From sequence record NC_102605.1: 50,633 nucleotides of DNA; one strand, 5' to 3'. The notes below the pieces were generated by a model. It was not told the origin of the DNA, made no database searches, and was given only the letters and a program-made list of their open reading frames with translations. Both the position numbers and the translations under genes were made by a program. Source of the DNA: a phage. Shown in pieces: positions 12,666 through 31,248 of the stretch. Position 1 is the stretch's first letter. Each line of letters opens with the position of its first letter.

Positions 12666-14639
12666 TTAAAACTCCTTCTGCGCAATCAAATCTTCTTTCT
12701 TTGTGTTTTTGCGATGGGTAACACGTTTCGGCGGCAATATTTGCCCCGCATAACTCATGATCTTAATTGCATTGCGGCAAGTGATCATGAAGTTTGCAGC
12801 CTGGCGATCTATAACGTGTGTTCTAACCGCCTTTGTCCAAAGCGTTTTGCATATCTTGTGTTCTGATTCAGGGAAATATTTTTCGTATGCCCTGAATTCT
12901 ACGCCGCCACTATCACGCAACGTGTAGCAGAATATTACGCCAGCCTGGTTTTTTGTCAGTGTTACATTAAAATCTAACACGTCACACCAATCATTTTTAC
13001 GGTACATCTTGCCGGATAAGTTATCATTTGGATCTCGCAACTGAACATTACAGCAACGGCATACACGCGCCGCAACGTCATTTTTTGCGCCGCAACCTTT
13101 TACAATAACTTTCTTTGTGCGGTCATCAATCTGATCCTCACATTCCTGGAACGTCCAGAAATGTTCACAACGATTTCCGTTTTCATCCTCATTAATGCAA
13201 CGGCGAGCATAGAATGAATTTTCTGTGCCGCAAATCGGGCAATATTTCGGATCTTTATCCTGTGATTTACGCAACTGGAATTGCGCTTGCTCTAACATCG
13301 GATCGAAATACAAATTACCCATTTCAAACATCGTGCCGGAAAAATCCAAAACAAGGTGATCCGTTTTGTGCATTCCCAATACTTCTTTATGGTAAGTTTT
13401 TAATTGACGCATACCGCGCCCCAAAAGCTGAGTTAATAGCGTCAGGCTTCCGATCTTACGCAAAATAACAGAAGTATCCCACGGCGGAACGTTCACTCCA
13501 GTTGTTAGCGCTTGAACCTGGAATATGTATTTCACGCGCCCTTCATAGGCATCCTCAAGCCATAAGCGCCGCTGTTTCTCTCCAGTTTTTCCGGTGATAA
13601 TGTGATATTTCGTGCCAGGAGGAAGCGCCGCCGCCGCCTCTTTACAATGCCTTTCGTCAGCGCAAGTAACAAGAGCGCACAAGCGGTTTTTCATCACCTC
13701 ATGAACCATCTGCATTATTTTCTGCGTCATGGTTCCTGATTGGTGAATCTTGTCACTCATGGCCTTTAATTGCTTCTGGTCATAATCAGCAACGCCAAAT
13801 TCATGCACTGGCGTAAATTCTGATAAGTCGTAACCCAAATCACCAACATTGCCAAAATAAGTTGGAACAACTGAGCCAAATTTTACCAGGTAATCAGTAT
13901 CAATGTTTGTGATCTGCTCACGCCAAAATCCAGGAATTCTTTTATCTTCGACAAGTATCGGCTCAATCCCGCGATATTCCGATCCGGTCATTCCAAATAT
14001 GCGCAACTGATGCCCGTAAGTCTCAAGGCAACGGCGGCGCATTTCTGCAATGATAATGGTGTATTGTGCGCGGCCTGAACCAATCAGCAACGGATGCCCT
14101 TCAACTGGTTCACCTTTCGGTGTCATCATTTGCTCTATGCTTTCGCCGTTTTCCTCGGCTTCAACAATATCATTCCAGTTGACTTGATGACATTCGTCTA
14201 TACCTAAAACTTGTGGGACGTAATCACCCAACGCTTTATTCAATCCACCAATTACAGTGCCTTCCGATCCGACAACAATCGGGAAATAAGCGCTTTTGGT
14301 ATTCAGGCCAGCGCAATAAACGGAATTCGGAACACCAAAGGCGCTAATCTCTTTTGAATCCTGATCCACAATTTCAGATTGACGCGCCAGAAATAACGCT
14401 TTCAACCCCATTTTACGGCACTGAGCCGCAACCATAGCAAAGATGATTGTTTTACCTGCCGATACCGCCGCTTTAACGAAAAACGGATCAACATACTTGC
14501 TCAAGCGCTTTGCAATTTCAGCGTAAGCAACGCATTGGTATTCATACGGGACAATCTCACCAACCGTGAAACGCTTCTGTATTGCTCTGATCTTTTCCTC
14601 TCCAAGATCTGCAATCTGCTTTTCAATGTTAGGAATCAT
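12666..14639 (-). CDS. DExH-box superfamily-2 DNA helicase with C-terminal Cys-rich zinc-finger region
   Basis: Walker A VSAGKT, DECH box (GIDECHQV), helicase C motifs, C-terminal CxxC clusters. Confidence 0.75.
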   Translation of the reverse strand: MIPNIEKQIADLGEEKIRAIQKRFTVGEIVPYEYQCVAYAEIAKRLSKYVDPFFVKAAVSAGKTIIFAMVAAQCRKMGLKALFLARQSEIVDQDSKEISAFGVPNSVYCAGLNTKSAYFPIVVGSEGTVIGGLNKALGDYVPQVLGIDECHQVNWNDIVEAEENGESIEQMMTPKGEPVEGHPLLIGSGRAQYTIIIAEMRRRCLETYGHQLRIFGMTGSEYRGIEPILVEDKRIPGFWREQITNIDTDYLVKFGSVVPTYFGNVGDLGYDLSEFTPVHEFGVADYDQKQLKAMSDKIHQSGTMTQKIMQMVHEVMKNRLCALVTCADERHCKEAAAALPPGTKYHIITGKTGEKQRRLWLEDAYEGRVKYIFQVQALTTGVNVPPWDTSVILRKIGSLTLLTQLLGRGMRQLKTYHKEVLGMHKTDHLVLDFSGTMFEMGNLYFDPMLEQAQFQLRKSQDKDPKYCPICGTENSFYARRCINEDENGNRCEHFWTFQECEDQIDDRTKKVIVKGCGAKNDVAARVCRCCNVQLRDPNDNLSGKMYRKNDWCDVLDFNVTLTKNQAGVIFCYTLRDSGGVEFRAYEKYFPESEHKICKTLWTKAVRTHVIDRQAANFMITCRNAIKIMSYAGQILPPKRVTHRKNTKKEDLIAQKEF

Positions 14640-14650
14640 TTTTTATCCTT

Positions 14651-14679
14651 TTGACTAAATGCCATTTGCGGCATATCAT
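14651..14679 (+). promoter_or_regulatory. Sigma70-type promoter TTGACT-17-TATCAT for the plus-strand HTH gene
   Basis: Canonical hexamers with 17-bp spacer; overlaps the divergent helicase cassette and its hairpin. Confidence 0.5.
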
Positions 14680-14700
14680 ACACAAACTTAATCAAGTTTT

Positions 14701-14720
14701 TTAGCAAAAAGTGCTATAGG
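14701..14720 (-). promoter_or_regulatory. Dyad-motif cassette (minus orientation) for the helicase gene
   Basis: Reverse complement tatagcactttttgctaaaa; tatgat about 21 bp downstream. Confidence 0.55.
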
Positions 14721-14727
14721 TGAAAAT

Positions 14728-15336
14728 ATGAGCGAAATCAAAATTGCCGCCTCAACTGGCGAAATAGACAAACGCACAATCAATGGTAACAACGGCGTAA
14801 GACGTGGTAAAGATCGCAAACGTCGCGCACCTGTTAGCGGTTATCTTGTATTAAAGGAAGAAGTAAGAGCCGGATTAAAAGCGCGGCTTGATGAAGTTGT
14901 CAACGCTTACGGCGGTTGCGCTGCCCTGGCGCGTGAAATTGGAGTTAACCTTAAAACAGTATGGGGATGGAAAGAGCGCGGCATGATTTCAACTAAAGGC
15001 GCTGAACTGATCCAGAAAGATTACCGCCGCAAAGGTTTTAACGGTTTCCGCGCTTCATATTGCCGTCCAGATATCAAGTTTGATAATAACGGCAAGCCAT
15101 TAGAGAATCGTTGCAGCAACAGAAAGCTGATGCGATTTGTAACCAAAGAGGAAGCGGAAGCAAGAGGATTTGTGCGGCCTTACGATCCGTTACGGTCTAT
15201 GAGTCCAGAAGAACGCGAGAAAGAGAAAGCGCGGCGCAAGGCTGAACGCGACAAGGCGAAAGAAGAACAGCGCAAAGCAAAGGAGGCCAATCAGAAGAAA
15301 CGCGTTGTGATTTCCGTCGATAGCACTGATTGCTAA
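14728..15336 (+). CDS. Cro/YdaS-like HTH DNA-binding protein with Lys/Arg/Glu-rich C-terminal tail (202 aa)
   Basis: HTH signature GGCAALAREIGVNLKTVWGWKERGMIS; AGGTGA RBS. Confidence 0.55.
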   Translation: MSEIKIAASTGEIDKRTINGNNGVRRGKDRKRRAPVSGYLVLKEEVRAGLKARLDEVVNAYGGCAALAREIGVNLKTVWGWKERGMISTKGAELIQKDYRRKGFNGFRASYCRPDIKFDNNGKPLENRCSNRKLMRFVTKEEAEARGFVRPYDPLRSMSPEEREKEKARRKAERDKAKEEQRKAKEANQKKRVVISVDSTDC

Positions 15337-15394
15337 AAATTCCGGCCTGGCATGGTTTATCATCGTGCCAGGTTTTTTATTTGGAGGTTGAGAA

Positions 15395-16321
15395 ATGCAT
15401 TATCAAAAAGAAGAAGTTATCCCAAAGATGCGCGGCATGTGGCAAGCGGCATTGATGAAACTTTGCGATATTCCTCAATTAACATTTAACGGAAAGCATC
15501 AGCCTTGCCCTTATTGCGGCGGTAAAGATCGCTTTCGTTGGACTGACAAAATCAACGAGAAAGGCGACGGCGGAAACATTTGCAACCAATGTGGTAATGA
15601 TTCAGGGATCGGATTGTTCATGCGCATACGTGGTGAAAATTACAGTGAAGCAATCGACACGCTAGGCGAATGGTTAAACCTGGTTCCGGTTGAGGTTGTC
15701 AACAAGGCTAACAAAGCGGCAAAACGTGATTCCGGTTACAACTTCGGATCGCAAGCGCCTCATGAGAAATGTGTTGAGGTTATGGATAAAACTGAACGCA
15801 TGGAAATAACAAACCTAAGCGTTTTTGAGGCGTTTTATCCATTAGACGGCGAATCGTATCAAGTTGGCGTAAAAACTCATGACAATGGATATTGCGAGCA
15901 TATACACGCTATTCCTTGCCACCTGGTGCATAGTGATGAATTGGATGATGACATGTGCAATATTCTTTTCGTCAATGAGGAAGGTAAAAGCAGTTTTTAC
16001 GCGAAAGATTACACGCGCGGAAGCGTTGCGGTAACTGGCAAGACTGACAAAACAATTTACCTTTGCGTTGATTGGATTGATGCGCAACATATACACCTGG
16101 CGACGGGGCAAGAAGTATGGGCGTGTTTTTCACCTTCAAATCTTGAAATTGTTGCATACAGATACAAAGGAGATCGCAAAATGCGCGTTGTGTGCCATGC
16201 TAATGAACGCGATACTTTGATTGCTGCTGATGATCGAGAATTAGACGTAATGTTACCAGTTAACGGTAAATTCAAAAATGGAATAGAGCGGAGGCTTTAC
16301 AAGGCAAGTGACTTATTATAA
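15395..16321 (+). CDS. DNA primase-like protein (zinc-ribbon plus TOPRIM-like region)
   Basis: CPYCGGKDRFRW...CNQCG zinc ribbon as in primase-helicase Zn-binding domains; GGAGG RBS. Confidence 0.55.
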   Translation: MHYQKEEVIPKMRGMWQAALMKLCDIPQLTFNGKHQPCPYCGGKDRFRWTDKINEKGDGGNICNQCGNDSGIGLFMRIRGENYSEAIDTLGEWLNLVPVEVVNKANKAAKRDSGYNFGSQAPHEKCVEVMDKTERMEITNLSVFEAFYPLDGESYQVGVKTHDNGYCEHIHAIPCHLVHSDELDDDMCNILFVNEEGKSSFYAKDYTRGSVAVTGKTDKTIYLCVDWIDAQHIHLATGQEVWACFSPSNLEIVAYRYKGDRKMRVVCHANERDTLIAADDRELDVMLPVNGKFKNGIERRLYKASDLL

Positions 16322-16384
16322 TATTCATCCTGCTACTAACACTTTTCGATGAATCTGTTTCATTGACTTCTCGTTGTCATTGAC

Positions 16385-16412
16385 GAACCCCGCTAAGGCG
16401 GGGTTTTTTATT
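16385..16412 (+). terminator. Rho-independent terminator after the primase gene
   Basis: aaccccgc-taag-gcggggtt followed by ttttttatt. Confidence 0.75.
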
Positions 16413-16439
16413 GCATGTAACATAGCAATATCGCATAAT
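16411..16439 (+). promoter_or_regulatory. Sigma70-type promoter TTGCAT-17-CATAAT for the tail fibre gene
   Basis: Canonical hexamers with 17-bp spacer, about 40 nt upstream of the fibre ATG. Confidence 0.5.
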
Positions 16440-16476
16440 CACTACACTGTTTCAATGAATAAAATGAGGTGTAATT

Positions 16477-18606
16477 ATGGCTTTATATCGCACTGGTACG
16501 GCTGCAATGGACGCGCAAGGCGTTATCACTGGTACTGGCACAAAATGGCGTGAGCCTCTTTCTCTTATCCGCACTGGCGCAACAATCGTATTTCTCACAT
16601 CGCCTCTTAAATTGGCTGTGATTAGCGATATTGTAAGCGACACGGAAATGAAAGCGATCCAGACTGACGGCGAGCCAGTAGAAAACGGAAATTATGTGAT
16701 CCTGTTGAATGACTCTTTAACGGTAGATGGAATGGCGCAAGATGTTGCGGAAACTCTGCGCTATTACCAAAGTAAAGAAACTGTTATTGAGGAAGCGATT
16801 GAATTTTTCAAAAACTTTGATTTAAAAACATTACAGGATCTTGTTGCTCGCGCTGAGGCTTCCGCTCAAAAAACTGATGCAGACCGAGCCGCGACAGAAC
16901 AATTAAAAAGCGACACGCAAACAATTAAGGATTCCGCCGTTTCTGAAACTCAACAGATTAAAAATGCCGCTGTTTCTGAAACCAATCAGATTAAGGCCGA
17001 CACGGACGCAATAAAAAACCAAACGCAACAGATTAAAGATTCTGCCGTTACTGAGATAACCGGAATTAAAAATGAAGCGTTAGACGCGCGTGATGAAGCG
17101 GAAAAAGCACAATTTGCCGCTGAACAATCAAAAGTTGGTGCTGATAATGCAAAGGCTGGCGCTGAGACTGCGCGTGATGAAGCTCGCCAATGGGCGCAAC
17201 AGGTACAGCCTGAAAATCTGCTGCATAAGGATCAAAACCTTAATGATCTCGCAAACAAAGACCTTGCAAGGGAGGCGCTAAAAGTTGAGGCTGTTAATTC
17301 TGTAAAAGATCAATATGCTGGCGCTTATAATTCTTTTCGTAATCCTGCATGGACTTATGAACTAAGGATCGCGAATAACGGCGAGTGGCGAGTTGCAAGA
17401 AATAGCGATGGATCAACGTCTGTTCTTTCTGTTGGTGCTGGCGGCACTGGTGCGGAAAACGTTACGCAAGCAAAATTAAACTTGCAGATTGATAGATTTG
17501 TGCAAGGTTCAACTTCAACAACGATGAAGATTGGCGACTACACGTTTAGTCTTGGTGATAATGGCGAGTGGGGCGTTGTAAAGAGTGGCGTTAGTGGTTG
17601 GATCGCGCTTGGTGTTGCGCAAGGTGGTACAGGTGCAACAAGCACAGGTCAAGCAAGGCGTAATCTCGGTATTAGTGAATCTGATATACCAATTTTTGGC
17701 GGAGTTGCTCTTGATGCCTTTAATAGCTACACATCTGGAATATTTTACCTAAGAAACAAGAACACTAGCGGCGCTCAAGTTTCGTACTCTCGCGTTTATA
17801 ACGAGATTAAAGGAGGTTTTGCAAAAACAACAATTCATACAACCAGAGAGGGTGGAGGTGCTAACTATTTTCAGATTGATGAAACTGGGCTTGTTAATAA
17901 TGTTAGGGCGATAATATGTTCTCCGTCAAATGTTGGTGGCGATGGATTTACCGTTGGCGTTGTTCCTGGTGGAGGATTTGCAGACTGGAGAGATCGACCT
18001 GCTGGAATGATTGTTGAGCACCCAAGCGATGATGTTGCGGTTAACGTCTTGAAATCTGTCCGTTGGGGCGGAGATTGGGTTATGGGGATTGACGCTGCAA
18101 GGTATGGCGGTGGAGTTTGCGAGGTTCATCTAAATGTAAGGGGAACTACATACACATTTAATGATAATGGTTATGCTTCTGCTGGTCAGTGGGTTAACAC
18201 TTCGGATATTCGACTGAAAGCAAATCTAAAAGAGATTAAAAGCGCTAAAGAAAAAGTGAAATCAATAAAAGGTTACACTTATTTCAAGAGAAATAATCTT
18301 GATGAAGATGAACACTCTTTCTACTCTGAGGAAGCTGGTGTAATAGCTCAAGACGTGCAAAGTGTTTTGCCGGAAGCGGTTTACAATATTTCAGATTCTG
18401 AATATTTAGGTGTTAGCTATGGTGGTGTTACTGCTCTTTTGGTTAACGCAGTAAATGAAATGATCGATGATTCTGATAAGCAAAATGAACTAATTGCAAA
18501 GCAACAGGAGGAAATTAACACATTACGCAACGAGTTAGACGAACTGAAAAACCTTGTAAAATCAATGCTTAGCGGAAATGCTTCAACAATTCCAGAACTA
18601 ACATAA
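16477..18606 (+). CDS. Tail fibre with C-terminal intramolecular chaperone (peptidase S74-like) domain
   Basis: Repeated beta-rich Gly/Thr segments; C-terminal SDIRLK auto-cleavage-type motif followed by coiled coil; GAGGTG RBS. Confidence 0.7.
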   Translation: MALYRTGTAAMDAQGVITGTGTKWREPLSLIRTGATIVFLTSPLKLAVISDIVSDTEMKAIQTDGEPVENGNYVILLNDSLTVDGMAQDVAETLRYYQSKETVIEEAIEFFKNFDLKTLQDLVARAEASAQKTDADRAATEQLKSDTQTIKDSAVSETQQIKNAAVSETNQIKADTDAIKNQTQQIKDSAVTEITGIKNEALDARDEAEKAQFAAEQSKVGADNAKAGAETARDEARQWAQQVQPENLLHKDQNLNDLANKDLAREALKVEAVNSVKDQYAGAYNSFRNPAWTYELRIANNGEWRVARNSDGSTSVLSVGAGGTGAENVTQAKLNLQIDRFVQGSTSTTMKIGDYTFSLGDNGEWGVVKSGVSGWIALGVAQGGTGATSTGQARRNLGISESDIPIFGGVALDAFNSYTSGIFYLRNKNTSGAQVSYSRVYNEIKGGFAKTTIHTTREGGGANYFQIDETGLVNNVRAIICSPSNVGGDGFTVGVVPGGGFADWRDRPAGMIVEHPSDDVAVNVLKSVRWGGDWVMGIDAARYGGGVCEVHLNVRGTTYTFNDNGYASAGQWVNTSDIRLKANLKEIKSAKEKVKSIKGYTYFKRNNLDEDEHSFYSEEAGVIAQDVQSVLPEAVYNISDSEYLGVSYGGVTALLVNAVNEMIDDSDKQNELIAKQQEEINTLRNELDELKNLVKSMLSGNASTIPELT

Positions 18607-18611
18607 TACAA

Positions 18612-18640
18612 CGGGAGGCGCAACGCCTCCCGTTTTTATT
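18612..18640 (+). terminator. Rho-independent terminator after the tail fibre gene
   Basis: gggaggcg-caa-cgcctccc followed by gtttttatt. Confidence 0.8.
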
Positions 18641-18697
18641 TACATATTATTTACAGTTGGCAAATATCTATTACAAAAATAAATCGCACAAGCGATT

Positions 18698-18892
18698 GTG
18701 AATGATGGTCATCAACAAATGGATATTATGAAATCGGCCTTTACTGATTTTAAAGCTCCTGGCTCTATGTCTGGACTGTTGTCTATAATGAATACCGGAA
18801 CGCTTAACGCACAACAGCTTGAACTTGCAAGCCGGATCGCAGTTAAGGTAATTGCTGTTTTGGGTATCAAAGAAAGTGAAAAAGGGGCGTAA
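18698..18892 (+). CDS. Hypothetical small protein (64 aa) bracketed by two terminators
   Basis: ORF track; weak RBS; terminator immediately downstream. Confidence 0.3.
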   Translation: MNDGHQQMDIMKSAFTDFKAPGSMSGLLSIMNTGTLNAQQLELASRIAVKVIAVLGIKESEKGA

Positions 18893-18908
18893 GCCCCTTT
18901 ATTTTTAG
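18878..18908. terminator. Bidirectional rho-independent terminator
   Basis: aaaggggc-gtaa-gcccctttatttt, symmetric A/T flanks. Confidence 0.75.
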
Positions 18909-20098: not shown

Positions 20099-20389
20099 TT
20101 AATGCTTTTCTTCGTTCTCGTTGTGATAATCAATCAAATTCTGGATCATGATTTCACTTGCCTGATTAATCATCTTGCGGTGTTCTTCGTTATTTTCCAT
20201 TTGAAGAACCGTTAATACAACGTTATCAATCGAATATGCAACCTTGCGAACATATTCAAGAGTTTCAGGTGATTCGCTTGGATCAATTACGCGCAAGAAC
20301 TGGCGTTGCATAATTCCTAATGCGTTTACAAATCCGCCTACGTGATCGCGCACATCTTGAATGTCTTGCTCATTGAATTGCTGTTCCAT
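20099..20389 (-). CDS. Hypothetical acidic protein (~96 aa)
   Basis: ORF track 20099..20431; internal ATG after GAGAGGA; own cassette upstream. Confidence 0.5.
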   Translation of the reverse strand: MEQQFNEQDIQDVRDHVGGFVNALGIMQRQFLRVIDPSESPETLEYVRKVAYSIDNVVLTVLQMENNEEHRKMINQASEIMIQNLIDYHNENEEKH

Positions 20390-20445
20390 TTTTATTTCCT
20401 CTCTCGTTGGTTGATGCGTGTAGTATAACACGCATCGAATGGCAG

Positions 20446-21544: not shown

Positions 21545-21580
21545 CTGCATTATAGGTCTTTGTTGCATGTAGTCAATACC
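21545..21580 (-). promoter_or_regulatory. Sigma70-type promoter TTGACT-16-TATAAT for the recombination operon
   Basis: Plus strand shows agtcaa and attata with a 16-bp spacer; homologous to the promoter at 105-140. Confidence 0.6.
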
Positions 21581-21920
21581 CTTTAAGTGTTCTTTTTGTT
21601 TTACATACGTTTATAGCTAGCACTGACAACAAAATAACATCGTAAGTTTATGATTTTACTGATTGTTGTTTTTGTGTTCCATTGTTAACGCATTTACGCC
21701 GCATACCATATATAAATACATACCATGTGATATATAACCATTAACCAATACAAAACACACAACCACCACAAACCATAGAGAACAACAGAAACAAGAAGAA
21801 TACAAATAGATATATATAATAATAATTAAACTCTAAGTGTATGTATTATATAGATATTTAATTTGTTCTTTTTGTTTTCAAGACGTTTTCAATTTTACGC
21901 CGGATTCAGTTGTGAACATC

Positions 21921-21966
21921 GTGGAACAAAAGAAAACAAAATGCCCCGACCGTTAAGCCAGGGCAT
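21921..21966 (-). terminator. Rho-independent terminator at the end of the late operon (after J)
   Basis: 7-bp stem aatgccc/gggcatt followed on the minus strand by ttgttttcttttgtt. Confidence 0.55.
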
Positions 21967-21981
21967 TGATTTACCTCCTTT

Positions 21982-24900
21982 TTATGCTTTGAATAGCAGA
22001 ACCGTTAAGATCGGCACTGCGTCTGCGTGGTTTAGATCTCCTGAATATGTAAGCGTTGTTGCTTGTCCTGCTGGCAACATAATGTAAGCACTACTACCGC
22101 CATGCATTGCAGTTGCTCTAACAGTTGCCAACCTTCCGCCATATGTTGAATCAACCCAAACAGTACCACCGCCCCATGCGCCGCCTGAGTAGGTGTAACC
22201 ATGCAAACCAACATACGGGATCACAAGGTGTCTGTTGTAGTTGACTGCCGGAATATTTACAGAACCCCAAATTGGCAATACAACAGCCTTTGCAACGTCT
22301 CCCTCAATTTTTTCAGCGTAAACAGTACCCCTAAACCATCCATCTTGCGCGTAAACGCTTCCGGTGAATGAACCATATGATGCGTAAACGCCACCCCTTA
22401 CAGTTACCTGGTTAAATTCAGCATAACCATTCTTATTAATCATCCAGCCAGCCGCGCCGCTACTCCAGTTGTTAGAGTTTATCTGATCTGCAATCTGTGC
22501 ATTACCGATAGAACCATTTTTAACAAGTAAGCTATTGATAAACACCTGATTATTTTCAACAACAAACGGCAATGTAAAGGCTCCGCTTTGAGCATTATTG
22601 ATGATCGCAAATCGTCCAGCATCAAACAGGAATTGTGATTTAACTCCGCTACCATCAGCGACAAGAGAAAGCGCCATACCTGCGCTATATTCCTGCCCGT
22701 TGTACCTGATCCCCAACTTAACGCCGTACATCGCACCAACGCTTGTACCGTTAACCCATGAATCAAGTTTCTGGTTAACCGCTGATTGGGTATCACCAAT
22801 TTGAGTTGATAACGCCCTATCCGCTGACGCTCGCGCTTCCGCTTCATTGGTGATTGCCTGGTTAACATCGGTTATCTGCGCTTTGATATCCTGCTTAACC
22901 CCATCAATTTCGCTCTCAAACGTAGCTGTAAGCTGATCAATCCTCTGGCTAATTGTTTCAGTGCTGTTAGCAATTACCTCTCTCAATTCGCTATTTTGAG
23001 CCGTTAATTTCTCGTCAAATTGCGCACTCATTTGAGTGACCTGCGTTACCCTTGCTTCTGTTTCGTCTGCAATGAGTTTCAGCGATTGCAAGAACTCCGC
23101 TTTACGCTTGCCGTTTTCAACTCGCATACGTCGCACATCTTTATCATTCGCCAATGCGTTTTCAATCACTGATTCCGCTGTGCTGTGGATCTTATCATTG
23201 GCCTTTATTGCGTTTTCCTGTAACCACTTATAGCCATCAGAATTTTCAATATCGACCTTAATATGATCCGTGATAATGCTTGTATCGTCGGAAGCCATGC
23301 CGCGCACAAAATCAGTCCAATCAGAAACGTTACCGATTTTGTCAACTGCCCTTGCCTTGTACCAGACAACATGACCCGCTGGCAGTATTGAATGCCAATA
23401 CTCATATTGCGGGAACGGTATTAGCGTTAAGAGCGTTGCTTCATCAACAATAGGATGACCATCAGAACCGTTCGGCGCTTGATGCAACTCAATATATGCC
23501 GTGTCTCCGCTTCCTTCTGGCATACCCCATTTAACGCGAATTCCGAAAACTTCATTATCAGACGCAGTAAGGTTAATTGGCCTTTCCGGTTCGCCAACCT
23601 TGCCAGTTAATCCGGCGCTTACAATGGCTGACCATCCAGACGCTGAACCATTCGCTGCAACAGATCTAACCCTTACGTGATAGTTTCCGGCGTAAATTCC
23701 TTCAACTTCCGTTTCCTTGTTGGCTGTGCGCGGCGTGTTGTTCCAGTTGCCATTGTCTTTTCTCCACTGCATTTCATAAAGGCTTGCATATTCAACCTTA
23801 TCCCATGAAACGTGCATTGTTTCCACGCTCGAGCCCTGGACAACTCGCGAATAAGATTCGATCTTGACGTTTTGCGGCGCTGGCAAAATGTCAGGCTGCA
23901 CGATTGAAGTCGGACGGTCATCAATGTTTACGCCATAATCAATTTCATCGTATTTGTTAGGATCGTATTCAACAGCCGTTATGTTGTAGGTAAATTCTTC
24001 ATCACCGTCACCCTTAGTGATTCCGGTTACAACATATCGTTGCTGTGCAATATCGGTTCGCTCAATTGCAAAAATGGTATCTGGCTGAACGTCAAAGCCA
24101 AATGTCGTGTTTAGCGTTAGCGTTTTACCGTCATCACTTACACGCGCAATGGTTCGACCAACTGGCTTACCATCCGGCTTATTTACCAGAATGCGATCAC
24201 CTGCTCTTGCGTCAACCTTAAACGGCGTGAACACCTGCAACCCGCTAACCTCCATCACGCGACCTGATAGATTCAGCGTTAGAGCGCTTGACCAAAAGTT
24301 ATCCGATACAACAATCACATCGCCTACGGTTGGGATCATACCTTCCAGACCTGTAGCAAAGTTTACCGTTGTGCTCTTGACGTTGGTTTTTAAAATCCAG
24401 CGTCCACGGCGGTTGGCTTCGCTGCGTCGTGTGCATCCAATCGCAGTAATTGACGTGCTGTTATAGCCAAAACGTAACGCCGCCTCCGTTTCGAAAACTC
24501 CCTCAACATCCTGTTGATACATGTTTTGTTCGTCGTCGAAAGTCACGTTGCATTGCGTGTACATGCTTTTTTCGCTGGCAAACGTGTAAGTGAATTCACC
24601 GTTAACCACGTTGTCATTAGTAAAGATGTATGACGCATCGCGAGGCTTATCGATCACGATTGAAAGGCTCTCACCATTCCAAAAGCTCATGCCACGGAAG
24701 ATTGAACAAATATCACGCACAAGCTGATACGCTTCTACCTGGCTCTGGATCACAACGTCGCAAAGATAGCGCGGCTCTGTTCCGCCTTTACTGTCTGGAA
24801 CCATCTGATCGCAATACTGCGCACATTCGTAAATGCTCCATTTATCAAGCGCGATGCCTAACTCTCTTTGATCGAGTCCGTAACGCTGATTGGTAATCAA

Positions 24901-25758
24901 ATCATACAGAACAAAAGCAGGGTTATTACTCCATGCCTTTTTCCAGGTTCCATCCCATGACCCTGAGTAAGTGCGGGAAATAGGATCATAATTTGACGGA
25001 ACATTAATGATTTTCCATTTTTTCTTAATGCTGATATTCGGCAACGCATTAGGGAATAATTCGCTGTCAAACTCAACATATACTAAACCAGTCAGGGGGT
25101 AACGAAATTTAGCGTCTACAACTTCCGCATAGCTTTGCATTTTAATCAGATCCGTTACCCTTGCTGACGTGCTATCTGTCAGGCGACGGACGCGCAATAA
25201 AACACGATCATTGAAAACAGGTAAATCAATTCGGCGGCTTCTGTCGTAACCGCTCATTGTTTTACCTTCAATTACATCATGCAAAACCTCTTTATATTCA
25301 GCACCATCAACAGCCATATCAACAGCATATTCAACGCGAACACCTGTTAGATCTCCGTTATCTTCCTGAGTAACCCCGCGAGGCATTAAAATTTTAATAC
25401 GGATCGCAGAAAGGTTTTTATTGGTAACAGAAATAATATAAGGCGTTGCGGCTGTCAGATCGCGAGCAACTGTAATTTCGCTGGCTGTATCAGTAAACCC
25501 CTGAATATAATCCTGCGTTTGCGTCCCCGGCCTGAATTCTGCCTTAACATTCTGAAAGTTTAGTGAACCATCCTGATTCATAACCGGAACGTCATCAAAA
25601 TATAAATCTTTCAATGAAAAGTCTGGATCAACTTCACCATCAGAAACGGCTAAAAGAATTCTGATCCTGTTAATTGAAATTAGGTTATCTTCCATTTCAA
25701 CAGGTGTATGAGGCTTTGAAGAACCGCCCTTACTTCCAGTTATCATATTTTTGATCAT
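21982..25758 (-). CDS. Central tail fibre / host-specificity protein (lambda J-like, 1258 aa)
   Basis: Size, position after the I-like gene, conserved J-like N-terminal region and FN3-like repeats. Confidence 0.85.
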   Translation of the reverse strand: MIKNMITGSKGGSSKPHTPVEMEDNLISINRIRILLAVSDGEVDPDFSLKDLYFDDVPVMNQDGSLNFQNVKAEFRPGTQTQDYIQGFTDTASEITVARDLTAATPYIISVTNKNLSAIRIKILMPRGVTQEDNGDLTGVRVEYAVDMAVDGAEYKEVLHDVIEGKTMSGYDRSRRIDLPVFNDRVLLRVRRLTDSTSARVTDLIKMQSYAEVVDAKFRYPLTGLVYVEFDSELFPNALPNISIKKKWKIINVPSNYDPISRTYSGSWDGTWKKAWSNNPAFVLYDLITNQRYGLDQRELGIALDKWSIYECAQYCDQMVPDSKGGTEPRYLCDVVIQSQVEAYQLVRDICSIFRGMSFWNGESLSIVIDKPRDASYIFTNDNVVNGEFTYTFASEKSMYTQCNVTFDDEQNMYQQDVEGVFETEAALRFGYNSTSITAIGCTRRSEANRRGRWILKTNVKSTTVNFATGLEGMIPTVGDVIVVSDNFWSSALTLNLSGRVMEVSGLQVFTPFKVDARAGDRILVNKPDGKPVGRTIARVSDDGKTLTLNTTFGFDVQPDTIFAIERTDIAQQRYVVTGITKGDGDEEFTYNITAVEYDPNKYDEIDYGVNIDDRPTSIVQPDILPAPQNVKIESYSRVVQGSSVETMHVSWDKVEYASLYEMQWRKDNGNWNNTPRTANKETEVEGIYAGNYHVRVRSVAANGSASGWSAIVSAGLTGKVGEPERPINLTASDNEVFGIRVKWGMPEGSGDTAYIELHQAPNGSDGHPIVDEATLLTLIPFPQYEYWHSILPAGHVVWYKARAVDKIGNVSDWTDFVRGMASDDTSIITDHIKVDIENSDGYKWLQENAIKANDKIHSTAESVIENALANDKDVRRMRVENGKRKAEFLQSLKLIADETEARVTQVTQMSAQFDEKLTAQNSELREVIANSTETISQRIDQLTATFESEIDGVKQDIKAQITDVNQAITNEAEARASADRALSTQIGDTQSAVNQKLDSWVNGTSVGAMYGVKLGIRYNGQEYSAGMALSLVADGSGVKSQFLFDAGRFAIINNAQSGAFTLPFVVENNQVFINSLLVKNGSIGNAQIADQINSNNWSSGAAGWMINKNGYAEFNQVTVRGGVYASYGSFTGSVYAQDGWFRGTVYAEKIEGDVAKAVVLPIWGSVNIPAVNYNRHLVIPYVGLHGYTYSGGAWGGGTVWVDSTYGGRLATVRATAMHGGSSAYIMLPAGQATTLTYSGDLNHADAVPILTVLLFKA

Positions 25759-27976: not shown

Positions 27977-28324
27977 TTATCGCATGGATGTAAATTCTTC
28001 CGTGAAAGTTGCTTTGACTTCCTGAGCGGTTGGGCTTATTGGCGTTAGCCCTACCGTTCCGGCTTTAACCGTAAACAACCCTAAATCACCATCCGGCATC
28101 CTCCACAAGAAAGGCTTTAATCTGTGATCCGTCATGAACGCTTTCACTTTTTTATAATCAGTGCCAGCGTAAACAATAGAAAACTCCCTCCGCTCCGTGT
28201 TAAATCCAGAAGACGCCTTTTGGCGATAACCGTTACCAAAAACAACTTCCCTGTCGTTATTGGTAGTTGTCATTACACCGCCGCCGCTCTGAATCTGCGT
28301 ACACCAGGTAAATTCATCTAACAT
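27977..28324 (-). CDS. Minor tail protein (lambda M-like)
   Basis: 115 aa, immediately downstream of the tape measure gene. Confidence 0.7.
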   Translation of the reverse strand: MLDEFTWCTQIQSGGGVMTTTNNDREVVFGNGYRQKASSGFNTERREFSIVYAGTDYKKVKAFMTDHRLKPFLWRMPDGDLGLFTVKAGTVGLTPISPTAQEVKATFTEEFTSMR

Positions 28325-31233
28325 TAAGCCCTCCCATGAACAAAATTATAAACCTCGCCACCTTGCGAGCATGAACGTTGAATCATTTCGGTGAAAATCA
28401 TCTTAATACCAGTTTCCATACCTTTTGGATCTTGACCGTTGTCAATGTTAACGTTGATATCACCAAATGCAAATTGCGATGCACCGCGATTGATGCCAGC
28501 GCCGCCAGTTGTCACGCTCCCTACTTGACCGCCGTTTGCATAACCTCGCATCATGCGATACAGGTTTTTGGCTCCGATCCTTTGCGTTGCCTCTTTGGTG
28601 AAAACAAACTCACCCTTATGAACCACTCCAGCCGGATCATATTTTCCACCGTCGCCAGTATAACCGCCGCCAGCAAAACCAGCACCGCTTAAAAGGCTCC
28701 CAAGCGTCCAGGTTGAGCCGCCCATCATGCCGGAAATGCTATTGAAGATAACCATCTTTGTGATCATCTGAACAATCAGGCTAATGATCGATTTTGCAAA
28801 GTCTTTGAAGTTTGCTTGTCCAGTAGTCAAAAAATCAGCCATTTGTTGCGATAGGCCGTTTAGCGCCTGGCTCGCAATGTTGCCGATATTATCATACATG
28901 TTCATTGCTTCCTCGCCGTACTCCGCAAAGGCATTTTTAGCGCCAGCTAACCAATCAGCGCGTTTAGCATCTTCCTCTTTATAGCGATTGTCTAATGCAT
29001 CCATCATTGCGGTGAGTTGCGGATCTCCTTCCTTGCCTCCTTTAGCAAGATAATCAGCCTCAACCTTTGCACGTTCCGCCGCTCTTGCTGCTTCACGCTC
29101 GCTTAATCCTCTTGTTTTGGCTAGTGCTTCTGTTGCTGCTTTCTGCTGCTGGATAAACTTGATTGAGCTATCTTGCAACTGATTCAGGCGAGTTTGTGCA
29201 ACAATCTGATCGCCTAAAATAGCTTTTTGTTCAGCCATCGCCAGGATCTTATCTTTGTTGGCTAAAATGCTTTTTTCTTCATCAGTAAGTTGCCGTTTTG
29301 TTGAGGCTTCTTGCAAAATCTGAATTTTAGCTTGTTCAGCCCATAAAGATTTACGTTGCTGGCTTATGGTATCCGTGATCGTCTTGTGCTCTTTCAAAAC
29401 TCTTAATTGAGTTTCTAACGCCAGGATATCACGCTGATATTGTTCTTCCAGCTTATCGCCAGCCGATACATTAACTTTTTCAGCCTTTTGCTTTTTATCG
29501 CGCTTGGCTAATTCCTCGGCTTCCTTCCTGATATTCTCTTTTGTTTTTGTTGCATATTGCTGTTCAACCGCCGCACGATTTTTCATCATGTCAATGTAAC
29601 CCTGCTCGCCTTTTTTGACTCGCTCGTTACGTTCAGCAATTGATTTTAATAGCTCCTTGTTGTTCTCCTTAGCGTTATTGATAATCTTCTGTTGCTGCGA
29701 AATAACAGAATCGCCAACATTATCAAGCCCTGGTATTTTTTGCATCGTTTTTGTTGCCGACACAATAAATTCACCAATGAGAATATCACCCTGATTAAGC
29801 AAATATCGAACTTGCTCAACGGTTCCGGCTACAACGTCAATAATCAGGTTAAGCGCCGCCAGCGTGTGATCCCCAACCCAACCCCATGCATCTGACGCCC
29901 ATTTTTTAATGTTCGTCCACATCTTTTCTAATGGCGTTGCGGAGTCTGCCAGTTTAGCTAATCTCTGATCCATAACATCAGCAAATAATTTTGTCGCCGC
30001 CGTTACTGCTTCCGTTTTGCCTTTCGTTTTCTCCAGGTCTGCAATATAAGTTAACTGCCCTTCACTTAAAAAGTTGAATTGCTCGTTTAGCTCTGCAAGA
30101 CCTTTAACCGGATCGCCAGCAATCTTATTAAAGTAATCGGTTATCTTGTCGCTTGATTCACCCGTTACCGTTGACCACTGAGCGGTAGTCTTTGTGATCG
30201 ATTTAATCTGATCAATCGTGAATTTGCCGGATTTTGCAAGCTCTGTTGCGATGGATCGGATGTTTCCCATCGTCGCATCAGTGCTGTTATTAATGTCCTG
30301 CGCCAGCTTATCGAACTGTGCGCCGCTTGTGCCAGCATATCCACCAGTCAGCACCAACGCCTCTTGCAAGTCACGTTGCGACTTATACGCATCATAACCA
30401 GCCTTAACAAGAGCACCCATTGAAACGGCTAAGGCGGCAAGGCCAACGTTTACCGGATTCAGAAACGACAACAGCGCTTTAAACGTATTACCAACGCCGC
30501 CGAAAGAATCCTTAATCTGTCCACCCTGCTGGATTGCAACCAACCAAACAGGCATACCGGAAGCCAGCGACGTTACAACGTCAGTGATCTGAGCCGGAAG
30601 TTGCGCCATAGCTTGCTTGTATTGCCCCGCGCTAATTCCGGTTAACTTCATCTGTTTTTCTTGCGCTTTAAGCTGTGCAATGAATGGCGCGGCCTGAGCA
30701 CTTACGCCAAGTTGCGCCGCTTTCATTTCCAGCAATTCGGCTTTTGTTTTTCCAAGCGCGGCGGCTTGCGATTCCAGATCCGCAAGGAAAGTTTTTCCGG
30801 CTAACGCTGCTTTCTCTTTGGCTTTTGATTCCTCAAGTGCTGCGCGGCCTTCTTCCGTTAACGCCTTTTTATTACGCTCCAGCTTACTGATCTGAGTTTC
30901 CAGCATACTCCCCAACTGGAAAAACGTTTCATCGGGAACAATGCCCTTTTGCCATAGCTTATCAAGATCACTTGCGGCCTGAGATAGCTTGCGCATTTTC
31001 GCCGCTGTCGGATCAACAGTGTCCTGAATGCGTTTAAATTCACGGCTCTGTTTCGCCAATTCATCAGCTAATTGTTTTGCTCTTTGCTTTGCAATTTCTT
31101 CCTCATTAACAAAGCTCTCAACGCCTTTCTTTGCTTCGTCGTTTGCTTTTTTAAAGTCCTGCAATGACTTTACAGCCCTGTTTAACTGCTCGACGTTAAC
31201 GCCAAGTGTTAAACCTGCAAATTGTTCAGCCAT
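28324..31233 (-). CDS. Tail tape measure protein
   Basis: About 970 aa, extensively alpha-helical/coiled-coil, Gly-rich hydrophobic C-terminal segment; GAGGG RBS. Confidence 0.85.
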   Translation of the reverse strand: MAEQFAGLTLGVNVEQLNRAVKSLQDFKKANDEAKKGVESFVNEEEIAKQRAKQLADELAKQSREFKRIQDTVDPTAAKMRKLSQAASDLDKLWQKGIVPDETFFQLGSMLETQISKLERNKKALTEEGRAALEESKAKEKAALAGKTFLADLESQAAALGKTKAELLEMKAAQLGVSAQAAPFIAQLKAQEKQMKLTGISAGQYKQAMAQLPAQITDVVTSLASGMPVWLVAIQQGGQIKDSFGGVGNTFKALLSFLNPVNVGLAALAVSMGALVKAGYDAYKSQRDLQEALVLTGGYAGTSGAQFDKLAQDINNSTDATMGNIRSIATELAKSGKFTIDQIKSITKTTAQWSTVTGESSDKITDYFNKIAGDPVKGLAELNEQFNFLSEGQLTYIADLEKTKGKTEAVTAATKLFADVMDQRLAKLADSATPLEKMWTNIKKWASDAWGWVGDHTLAALNLIIDVVAGTVEQVRYLLNQGDILIGEFIVSATKTMQKIPGLDNVGDSVISQQQKIINNAKENNKELLKSIAERNERVKKGEQGYIDMMKNRAAVEQQYATKTKENIRKEAEELAKRDKKQKAEKVNVSAGDKLEEQYQRDILALETQLRVLKEHKTITDTISQQRKSLWAEQAKIQILQEASTKRQLTDEEKSILANKDKILAMAEQKAILGDQIVAQTRLNQLQDSSIKFIQQQKAATEALAKTRGLSEREAARAAERAKVEADYLAKGGKEGDPQLTAMMDALDNRYKEEDAKRADWLAGAKNAFAEYGEEAMNMYDNIGNIASQALNGLSQQMADFLTTGQANFKDFAKSIISLIVQMITKMVIFNSISGMMGGSTWTLGSLLSGAGFAGGGYTGDGGKYDPAGVVHKGEFVFTKEATQRIGAKNLYRMMRGYANGGQVGSVTTGGAGINRGASQFAFGDINVNIDNGQDPKGMETGIKMIFTEMIQRSCSQGGEVYNFVHGRA

Positions 31234-31248
31234 ATATTTTACCCTCAT

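Follow-up and report, generated by a model that had tools for sequence, protein, structure and literature searches.

We consider it very likely that the 709-residue protein described here is the lateral fibre of a Tls-like siphophage and that it follows a six-step course involving an S74 chaperone, cleavage, glycan binding and intragenic recombination. Judged from the alignments, the unit exchanged between relatives is an internal segment of the gene, about residues 331-563 or 341-699. Both the domain family and the layout of the locus are already known, and only the presumed receptor-binding middle part is unusual in sequence.

The fibre gene, its locus and its N-terminal half

The window, i.e., the whole stretch of 50,633 nucleotides that was analysed, is the deposited genome of Escherichia phage vB_EcoS_011D2 (Tlsvirus, Drexlerviridae), a T1/Tls-like coliphage for which a literature search gave just one incidental mention. 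The features discussed in this section are the following.

16477..18606, + strand: lateral (side) tail fibre gene, a 709-aa ORF encoding a 76.6-kDa precursor
16477..16821, + strand: N-terminal virion-attachment domain, aa 1-115, conserved across Drexlerviridae
16822..17202, + strand: alpha-helical shaft, aa 116-242, a single predicted helix with pLDDT about 66-83
16920..16994, + strand: 33-bp tandem repeat, 2.3 copies (Tandem Repeats Finder score 97), encoding an 11-residue shaft repeat
21982..25758, − strand: J-like tail tip gene, the tail gene nearest to the fibre

The protein is 100% identical to the NCBI entry 'tail fiber protein [Escherichia phage vB_EcoS_011D2]', so named in the public record with PF13884 assigned, and this annotation is correct. 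Among PHROG families the match to tail fiber phrog_5481 reaches E = 1.6e-235, and every significant match is to a tail-fibre family.

The first-pass annotation, made from the sequence alone, had described a 709-aa fibre ORF running opposite to the tail genes, and both the ORF and, from the gene order, its orientation are as described. The distance to the tail genes that it gave, about 10 kb, is wrong, as the J-like tip gene starts 3376 bp downstream. Nor does the fibre stand alone on its strand: the genes for regulator, primase and fibre follow one another in the same orientation, the fibre last, and a terminator stands after each of them. The gene order in the window is helicase (−), regulator (+), primase (+), fibre (+), ssb (−), Erf (−), recE (−) and J-like tip (−). 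The order primase/helicase, fibre, ssb/recombination recurs in YSP2, Bas08, Tls, Shfl1, Bas03 and EC167, and the fibre gene keeps its position both in the examined Tlsviruses and in phages that represent three Drexlerviridae subfamilies. This layout between replication and recombination genes has been published as family-wide, and the hypervariable lateral-fibre locus of Drexlerviridae has likewise been described (BASEL paper, Maffei et al. 2021, PMC8594841).

Compared with the lateral tail fibres of this family (Tls Stf, DanielBernoulli/Bas08 LTF, YSP2 gp32 and U136B; Maffei et al. 2021, PMC8594841), the fibre occupies the same slot, after regulator and primase and converging on ssb/recT/recE, and shares the N-terminal ~330 residues, the promoter region, the terminator and an S74 C-terminus, the last found in 3/3 relatives tested. 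It differs in residues 331-563, a different allele, to which no protein of a deposited phage is more than 67% identical. The T5 ltf gene likewise adjoins replication/recombination genes across a terminator; unlike the fibre gene it shares its strand with the T5 tail genes, and its product pb1 is twice as long (1396 aa).

Column identity within residues 1-115 is 83-95% among 67 homologues, and the far N-terminus has been reported as the only fibre part common to the family (BASEL paper, PMC8594841). Median identity to the best database homologues over residues 1-330 is 86%. The shaft is probably a coiled coil with 11-residue repeats, as the predicted helix suggests; an 11-mer periodicity is readable in its sequence, and P0002, a 94% relative, carries one 11-residue unit more at residue 149. 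In the fourth step of the proposed course, residues 1-115 would dock the fibre on the tail and the helical shaft would extend it. The full-length AlphaFold2 model of the monomer reached pLDDT 66 and pTM 0.24, and its Foldseek matches in the PDB (WD40/nucleoporin) were discarded as meaningless noise.

The S74 domain and its predicted cleavage

The C-terminal part of the protein carries the following features.

18202..18603, + strand: Peptidase_S74 intramolecular chaperone (ICA) domain, aa 576-709, predicted 15.0-kDa fragment
18199..18204, + strand: predicted scissile bond Thr575-Ser576, aligned with T5 pb1 Thr1263-Ser1264 and K1F 'TS'
18217..18219, + strand: Lys581, predicted general base of a Ser-Lys dyad, invariant in 67 homologues
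18418..18570, + strand: C-terminal helix, aa 648-698, predicted with pLDDT 81-93, with a/d heptads

The S74 domain that had been read from the sequence at the C-terminus is supported by profile match, Ser/Lys dyad, alignment to reference domains and fold similarity. The profile search that had been suggested as a check gave a match of PF13884 well above its curated cutoff (E = 8.1e-14, 52.1 bits versus 22), aligning profile positions 1-58 of 58 to residues 576-636. The SDIRLK motif starts at residue 576 (nt 18202), 134 residues run from Ser576 to the C-terminus, and a long terminal helix is predicted after the motif, where the first reading had placed a coiled coil; the domain has the characteristic S74/ICA fold. 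S576, D577, R579 and K581 are invariant among 67 fibres diverged down to about 50% identity, and S-D-[IV]-R-[LMI]-K, placed 118-135 residues before the C-terminus, is found in 113/120 of the best homologues. The terminal helix, presumed from the model to be a trimerising coiled coil, shows an a/d heptad pattern (I680, L683, L687, L690, V694, M697), and across the 67 homologues E679 is invariant and I680, L683 and E686 nearly so. G+C drops to about 0.36 in the stretch that encodes S74.

Among proteins of solved structure, Salmonella phage S16 gp37 (PDB 6F45; profile E = 5.6e-26) is nearest in sequence to the C-terminal module, and its SSDRRIK aligns to the TSDIRLK of the fibre. Unlike the fibre, S16 gp37 is the long tail fibre of a myovirus, and it works with a separate adhesin, gp38. 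HMMER alignments to S16 gp37 and to MyRF place both Ser and Lys in register. Neither T5 pb1 nor K1F endoNF was reached when the PDB was searched by sequence and by profile, and their genes were therefore taken from the phage records and aligned directly to the fibre. S576 and K581, with Lys at +5, align with T5 S1264/K1269, MyRF S587/K592 and the K1F dyad (Lys916), and the nearly invariant Y600-x-Y602 aligns to MyRF Y615/Y617. Identity of the fibre to the K1F endosialidase chaperone (PDB 3GW6) and the MyRF ICA domain (PDB 7DC3) is only 11-21%, and the cargoes differ, being a sialidase tailspike in K1F, a eukaryotic transcription factor in MyRF and a phage fibre here. The Tls and Bas08 fibres carry a different, more divergent S74 variant scoring about 24 bits.

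A parallel is T5 pb1 (2015, PMC4690869), also a siphophage side fibre with a C-terminal intramolecular chaperone of ~133 residues, in which the Thr-Ser scissile bond, Lys at +5 and the upstream Asp (Asp1239, aligned to D563) all have counterparts in the fibre. The folding sensor T5 Arg1250 has no aligned counterpart, falling within a 13-residue stretch absent from the fibre, and therefore the cleavage trigger may differ from that of T5/K1F. The ICA domain of MyRF has no stalk sensor and its dyad suffices, so the upstream Asp/Arg sensor is not universal.

By homology to K1F endosialidase, T5 pb1 and MyRF, we propose as the second step that the 76.6-kDa precursor would trimerise via the C-terminal helix of the S74 domain, which would template the beta-structured distal fibre. 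As the third step, Ser576, activated by Lys581 in the formed trimer, would cut Thr575-Ser576 and free the 134-residue, 15-kDa chaperone; the mature fibre that remains, of 575 residues and 61.6 kDa, would have an exposed distal tip. The fibre thus very probably cleaves off its own chaperone domain after assembly.

Could the S74-like module instead fail to cleave and remain part of the mature fibre, as a trimerisation cap? The deleted position of the T5/K1F Arg sensor would fit such a cap, and the literature searched holds no processing data for Tlsvirus fibres; against it, retention without catalysis leaves unexplained a Ser-Lys dyad invariant in 67 homologues, the MyRF dyad works without the sensor, and in T5 the uncleaved domain stops a fibre fragment from inhibiting adsorption by competition. 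We find the retained cap very unlikely. The alternative of an enzymatic tailspike or depolymerase in place of a binding fibre is very unlikely and was rejected. The first S74 domains to be described belonged to endosialidase tailspikes, and the best solved-structure matches of the N-terminus are Klebsiella phage capsule depolymerases (residues 1-195 match the N-terminus of 7VYV and 7LZJ with E = 3e-51), but this similarity stops at residue ~195 and covers no more than the attachment domain and the first part of the shaft. In addition, the Pfam search of the fibre gave no match to any enzymatic family, glycosidases and lyases included, the significant PHROG matches are all to tail-fibre families, and the nearest relatives of the distal region are lateral fibres of T5-like phages.

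Transcription of the fibre gene

The elements relevant to transcription and translation are the following.

14651-14679, + strand: promoter upstream of the regulator, TTGACT-17-TATCAT, matching 10/12 consensus positions
16385..16410, + strand: primase-transcript intrinsic terminator, stem-loop plus T-run, directly upstream of the fibre promoter
16411..16439, + strand: sigma-70-type promoter-like element TTGCAT-17-CATAAT, with a weak −35 and a good −10
16464..16471, + strand: Shine-Dalgarno region ATGAGGTG, invariant in 7/7 aligned relatives
18610..18640, + strand: fibre-transcript intrinsic terminator, hairpin 18610-18634 followed by the T-run TTTTTAT

The promoter that the first-pass annotation called canonical is present (TTGCAT at 16411, CATAAT at 16434), and as it matches only 8/12 consensus positions, with 3/6 in the −35 hexamer, it is not canonical. 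It is not among the sites listed by a promoter consensus scan, and the window contains 558 sites that score at least as high (about 5.5 per kb per strand). Conservation nevertheless favours it: in seven Tempevirinae the −35 and −10 are 83% and 88% identical versus 53% in the spacer and 50% in the 5'UTR, and the spacer is 17 nt long in 7/7 phages aligned. In distant relatives and other subfamilies the end of an extended −10 (TGnTAnnAT) is separated from the ATG by 36-45 nt, and in the fibre gene described here 37 nt lie between the −10 and the ATG. This comparative footprint supports a local fibre promoter and suggests that transcription starts there. In the literature searched no transcript map of a T1-like phage was found, only that of a T5-like phage.

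The primase terminator has a 9-bp stem with 6 G-C pairs (dG −19.6 kcal/mol, z = −4.5), and a hairpin with a T-run stands at its position in every relative aligned. The terminator after the fibre gene is strong, as had been claimed, with an 11-bp stem containing 8 G-C pairs (dG −20.4 kcal/mol, z = −7.6), and no shuffled sequence folds as stably. In Bas08 and Tls it is 90-95% conserved, with unrelated coding sequence just upstream. As the first step of the proposed course, the footprint points to transcription that would run from the local sigma-70 promoter at 16411-16439 to the hairpin at 18610-18634.

An exchanged segment within the gene

The segment presumed to bind the receptor, the module actually exchanged by our reading of the alignments, is:

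17467..18165, + strand: variable distal segment, aa 331-563

Against YSP2 there is no alignable DNA from 17463 to 18165, and the flanks are about 96% identical. The left break in similarity lies at residue ~329-340; the right one lies at residue ~564 in the comparison with YSP2 and at ~700 in those with Tls and Bas08. In YSP2, Tls, Bas08 and P0002, collinearity with the flanking genes extends through the promoter and the first ~330 codons and holds for the terminator too, and these parts are as similar as the flanking genes are (92-97%). As identity breaks only within the gene, the mosaicism is real but intragenic. The composition profile of the gene shows no clear break at the mosaic boundaries.

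The homologue search covered a database of 5.8 billion sequences, of which the best 120 matches were compared. Residues 331-563 could be aligned in 26 of these ~120 homologues with a median identity of 39%, the closest deposited phage protein is 67% identical, and P0002 alone among the 120 best matches reaches at least 90%. The distal part of the fibre shows up to 63-68% identity with T5-like phages.

The first-pass annotation saw in the locus an exchangeable host-range cassette and suggested comparing relatives for mosaicism. The comparison did reveal mosaicism, and so that part of the claim stands; the promoter-to-terminator unit does not. In favour of a mobile cassette comprising promoter, gene and terminator one may cite the terminators on both sides, the promoter-like element and the homologue in a Klebsiella Webervirus, which is oriented differently relative to ssb, erf and recE. 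These are outweighed by the internal position of the breaks, by the promoter, first ~330 codons and terminator that remain collinear with the flanks, and by a gene position fixed across three subfamilies; the whole-unit cassette was rejected as quite unlikely. A more serious alternative, which we regard as possible though doubtful, is that the promoter upstream of the regulator, and not the local one, accounts for most fibre expression by way of read-through or antitermination, in which case regulator, primase and fibre would form one attenuated operon. The three genes are contiguous and co-oriented, the upstream promoter matches 10/12 consensus positions versus 8/12 for the local element, and the local element is equalled by those 558 sites. 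However, two strong intrinsic terminators intervene (15344-15374 and 16385-16406), the local hexamers and the 17-nt spacing are kept while the spacer and the UTR diverge, an extended −10 lies at the equivalent distance from the ATG in other subfamilies, and a structural gene is expected to differ from primase in timing.

The remaining steps concern adsorption and host range. As the fifth step, residues ~331-575 would bind a surface glycan (for example O-antigen or LPS) in a reversible primary adsorption, and irreversible binding would follow via the J-like tip, as the literature on relatives suggests; the J-like tip is 96-97% identical to the tips of the TolC-dependent phages Tls and Bas08. 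By analogy with these relatives, the fibre would be a virion component that mediates primary adsorption to a surface glycan. In gp28 of CRES7/CRES9, Drexlerviridae infecting another genus, Cronobacter, residues in the region preceding the ICA domain set O-serotype specificity (Cho et al. 2025, PMC12090712); the likeness to the fibre (coiled coil, beta-helical distal region, ICA domain) is by published description only. As the sixth step, host range would vary by recombination within the gene, the breakpoints being observed and the homologous flanks presumably supplied by the N-terminal/shaft part on one side and the S74 module, or the gene end and terminator, on the other.

As the gene is already annotated, and domain family and locus layout are published, the discovery value is low. 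The mapped breakpoints (about residues 330-340, and 564 or 700) with their conserved flanks offer swap sites for the receptor-binding module in the engineering of Tls-like phages, a modest practical value, and the rare allele of residues 331-563 may have a glycan specificity of its own. It is a rather unlikely joint conjecture that this allele recognises a surface glycan new as a phage receptor and that the fibre gene is an insulated, separately timed unit within the replication module, whose promoter, with a conserved but weak −35 (TTGCAT) right behind a terminator, needs a phage factor for late firing; such a factor may be the 202-aa 'transcriptional regulator' encoded two genes upstream. 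In a minority of relatives Phage_tail_C_2 (PF25670) takes the place of S74.

Position and anatomy of the fibre gene

The core of the first-pass annotation, a 709-aa tail fibre with an S74 C-terminus, is correct, but it is an ordinary finding that the public annotation already contains: along its entire length the protein shares 100% identity with "tail fiber protein [Escherichia phage vB_EcoS_011D2]", in which PF13884 is already recorded. The only mildly unusual point of the locus is the rarity of the allele at fibre residues 331-563. The elements of the locus and the parts of the protein are as follows.

14651-14679, +, TTGACT-17-TATCAT ahead of the regulator gene, the highest-scoring promoter match in this region
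15344-15374, +, intrinsic terminator behind the regulator gene
16385-16406, +, intrinsic terminator behind the primase gene
16411 (TTGCAT) and 16434 (CATAAT), +, promoter-like element by sequence, 17-nt spacer
16477..18606, +, fibre ORF, 709 aa
16920-16994, +, 33-bp tandem repeat encoding part of the 11-residue shaft repeat
18610-18634, +, intrinsic terminator behind the fibre gene
21982..25758, -, J-like central fibre, 1258 aa (phrog_31, E = 0)
aa 1-115, +, beta-rich, highly conserved domain (83-95% column identity)
aa 116-242, +, single predicted helix with visible 11-residue periodicity (model and sequence)
aa ~280-400, +, short beta segments; the motif GGTGA...NL occurs twice, at 322 and at 383
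aa 331-570, +, variable region (19-55% column identity)
aa 576-709, +, S74 module, the predicted released fragment

The flanking DNA shares ~97% identity with Salmonella phage YSP2 and 92-96% with Tls and DanielBernoulli (Bas08), all members of Tlsvirus (Drexlerviridae, Tempevirinae). The gene order of the window, helicase (-), regulator, primase and fibre (+), ssb, Erf and recE (-) and the J-like tip (-), recurs in these three phages and also in Shfl1 (Tunavirinae), JulesPiccard/Bas03 (Braunvirinae) and EC167 (Warwickvirus), whereas in the Klebsiella Webervirus NPat the homologous depolymerase gene is co-oriented with recE, erf and ssb. Maffei et al. 2021 (PMC8594841) described this lateral-tail-fibre locus, its flanking primase/helicase and recombination genes being conserved and syntenic, and reported that the 5' end of the gene alone is common to Drexlerviridae members while the remainder is highly diverse. 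The distance of about 10 kb from the other tail genes that had been put forward does not hold, as 3376 bp separate the nearest of them, the J-like gene, from the stop codon of the fibre ORF.

Residues 1-195, which comprise the conserved domain and the first part of the shaft, match the N-terminus of two depolymerases of Klebsiella phages, 7VYV and 7LZJ (E = 3e-51), and we read aa 1-115 as a probable virion-attachment module common to the relatives. The closest relative, P0002 (94%), carries exactly one additional 11-residue shaft unit, suggesting that shaft length is polymorphic through repeat slippage.

The chaperone module and a model of fibre maturation

SDIRLK starts at residue 576 (nt 18202). 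In the profile search suggested by the first-pass annotation, Pfam Peptidase_S74 is matched over positions 1-58 of 58 by aa 576-636 (E = 8.1e-14; 52.1 bits, gathering score 22), a threshold also passed by the fibres of YSP2 (43.2 bits), Bas08 (24.6) and Tls (24.1). The motif S-D-[IV]-R-[LMI]-K is found 118-135 residues from the C-terminus in 113 of the 120 best homologues; among the seven others, Phage_tail_C_2 (PF25670) was detected in the three that were scanned and is recorded in databases for three more. An alignment of 67 fibres down to ~50% identity leaves S576, D577, R579, K581, G621, A624, Q625, L655 and E679 invariant. Column identity of the module among homologues is 73-80% up to aa 660 and lower beyond. 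The DNA for the module (18100-18700) has a G+C content of 0.36-0.37, compared with 0.40-0.48 elsewhere in the gene.

When T5 pb1 and K1F gp17, taken from their genome records, were aligned directly with the fibre, T575-S576 and K581 fell on T5 Thr1263-Ser1264 and Lys1269 and on the TS...K motif of K1F, and D563 fell on T5 Asp1239; the functions of these T5 residues are described in the T5 pb1 paper (PMC4690869). In HMMER alignments the Ser and Lys are in register with S16 gp37 (6F45) and the intramolecular chaperone (ICA) domain of MyRF (7DC3), and the nearly invariant Y600-x-Y602 aligns with MyRF Y615/Y617, shown to be important for cleavage. Unlike T5, the window fibre lacks a 13-residue stretch that holds Arg1250, the sensor of the neighbouring subunit. 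As MyRF uses no stalk sensor and yet its Ser-Lys dyad is indispensable, such a sensor is not universal in the ICA family.

Structure prediction lends the S74 fold specific but moderate support. The model of aa 505-709 (pLDDT 79) is of low confidence, besides its first four residues, solely around the predicted scissile site, and Foldseek returned no significant match for it. The full-length monomer model is poor (pLDDT 66, pTM 0.24), with Foldseek matches that were discarded as noise.

By analogy, maturation is best explained by the mechanism that is standard for the class. The C-terminal chaperone would trimerise and template folding of the distal fibre, after which the putative Ser576/Lys581 dyad would cut Thr575|Ser576, so that the chaperone removes itself and the distal tip is unmasked, as shown for T5 pb1 (PMC4690869); a precursor of 76.6 kDa is predicted to give a mature fibre of 61.6 kDa and a fragment of 15.0 kDa. 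The mature fibre may then bind a surface glycan reversibly, as proposed generally for Drexlerviridae lateral fibres (Maffei et al. 2021, PMC8594841); for Cronobacter phages CRES7 and CRES9 such binding has been demonstrated by experiment, two residues ahead of the ICA domain switching O-serotype specificity (Cho et al. 2025, PMC12090712). Irreversible binding would fall to the J-like tip; it shares 96-97% identity with its counterparts in Tls and Bas08, both reported TolC users (Maffei et al. 2021, PMC8594841). Downstream of J the window has no separate locus for a receptor-binding protein, in keeping with the TolC-type layout reported for these two phages. The 413-bp gap between recE and the J-like stop (21569-21981) is devoid of ORFs of at least 80 aa.

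Mosaicism within the gene

Compared with YSP2, DNA identity is 96.2% over 14600-17462 (to fibre aa 329), no DNA is alignable over 17463-18165, and identity returns at 96.7% from 18166 (aa 564) on. With Tls and Bas08 it extends to 17496 (aa 340) and returns only at 18574 (aa 700), that is, for the last ten codons and the terminator. Across 119 homologues the median identity is 86% for the N-terminal 330 aa and 77% for the S74 module, while aa 331-563 are alignable in just 26, with a median of 39%. P0002, whose backbone is of the same Tlsvirus type, is the only one of the 119 to reach at least 90% over this segment; its best matches among deposited phages are W011D (67%) and the T5-like SpoonbillGilly (63%), with more among T5-like and Nonagvirus phages. 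Based on these segment-wise identities and cross-family matches, we propose that the variation reflects intragenic exchange of modules from a pool common to several families. The composition profile has no clear break at the mosaic boundaries.

The conserved flanks of the exchanged segment are the end of the shaft on one side and, on the other, the S74 module or the last codons with the terminator; promoter, 5' third and terminator belong to the conserved backbone. The exchangeable host-range cassette suggested earlier thus stands as exchange of an internal segment and not of the whole transcription unit.

Transcription signals and neighbouring loci

The interval first assigned to the fibre, 16411-18640, is bounded exactly by the -35 hexamer and the tail of the terminator, as follows from the coordinates of promoter, ORF and hairpin. 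The strong terminator is indeed there (18610-18640): its 11-bp stem includes 8 G-C pairs, a T-run follows, and no shuffle folds as well (dG -20.4 kcal/mol, z = -7.6). TTGCAT-17-CATAAT is likewise present, but it is not canonical: it matches 8/12 consensus positions (3/6 in the -35 hexamer), is unlisted by a consensus scan and is equalled or bettered by 558 sites in the window.

Comparison nevertheless supports this element, unremarkable by consensus, as a putative local promoter. In an alignment of seven Tempevirinae (the window phage, Tls, CF1, U136B, GS71, Motto and STSR3) the spacer is 17 nt throughout and the Shine-Dalgarno sequence ATGAGGTG is invariant, and the four divergent members retain 83% and 88% identity to the window in the -35 and -10 hexamers, as against 53% in the spacer and 50% in the 5'UTR. 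Other subfamilies and Webervirus carry an extended -10 (TGnTAnnAT) ending 36-45 nt ahead of the fibre ATG, compared with 37 nt for the window CATAAT, and in every lineage the element lies directly behind a terminator hairpin (dG -19.6 kcal/mol, z = -4.5 in the window). Set against this conservation, expression by read-through from the promoter at 14651, the better match at 10/12 positions, seems to us rather improbable. A limited literature search gave transcript data for no T1-like phage, so initiation at the local promoter is what we infer. The fibre is the last of three + strand genes, after a 202-aa transcriptional regulator and a DNA primase, each followed by a terminator, a layout resembling a stepwise or attenuated transcription unit.

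Of note between the fibre and the J-like gene are two small ORFs:

18698-18892, +, 64-aa ORF of unknown function (phrog_7239, E = 1.1e-33)
20099-20431, -, 109-aa ORF flanked by the Erf-like and exonuclease VIII genes (phrog_11265, 'tail length tape measure protein')

The 64-aa ORF, which has no Pfam match, ends at a bidirectional terminator (18881-18900) and occupies a variable position between the terminator of the fibre gene and ssb, where YSP2 carries a hypothetical gene of 195 nt, Tls none that is annotated, and Bas08 four, among them a 'putative sugar-binding protein'.

Sequence of Tlsvirus or other Drexlerviridae, at 79-90% identity, is also deposited under unrelated host names (Streptococcus phage MBBL140, Pseudomonas phage Motto, Campylobacter phages A136 and A113). 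As T1-like phages are known laboratory contaminants according to PMC13164509, these host labels call for caution.

RefSeq labels the YSP2 and Tls homologues of the 109-aa ORF tape measure too. Judging by size and position, this label is very probably a propagated mis-annotation, and the obvious tape-measure candidate would be the 974-aa ORF at 28324..31248, inside the tail module.
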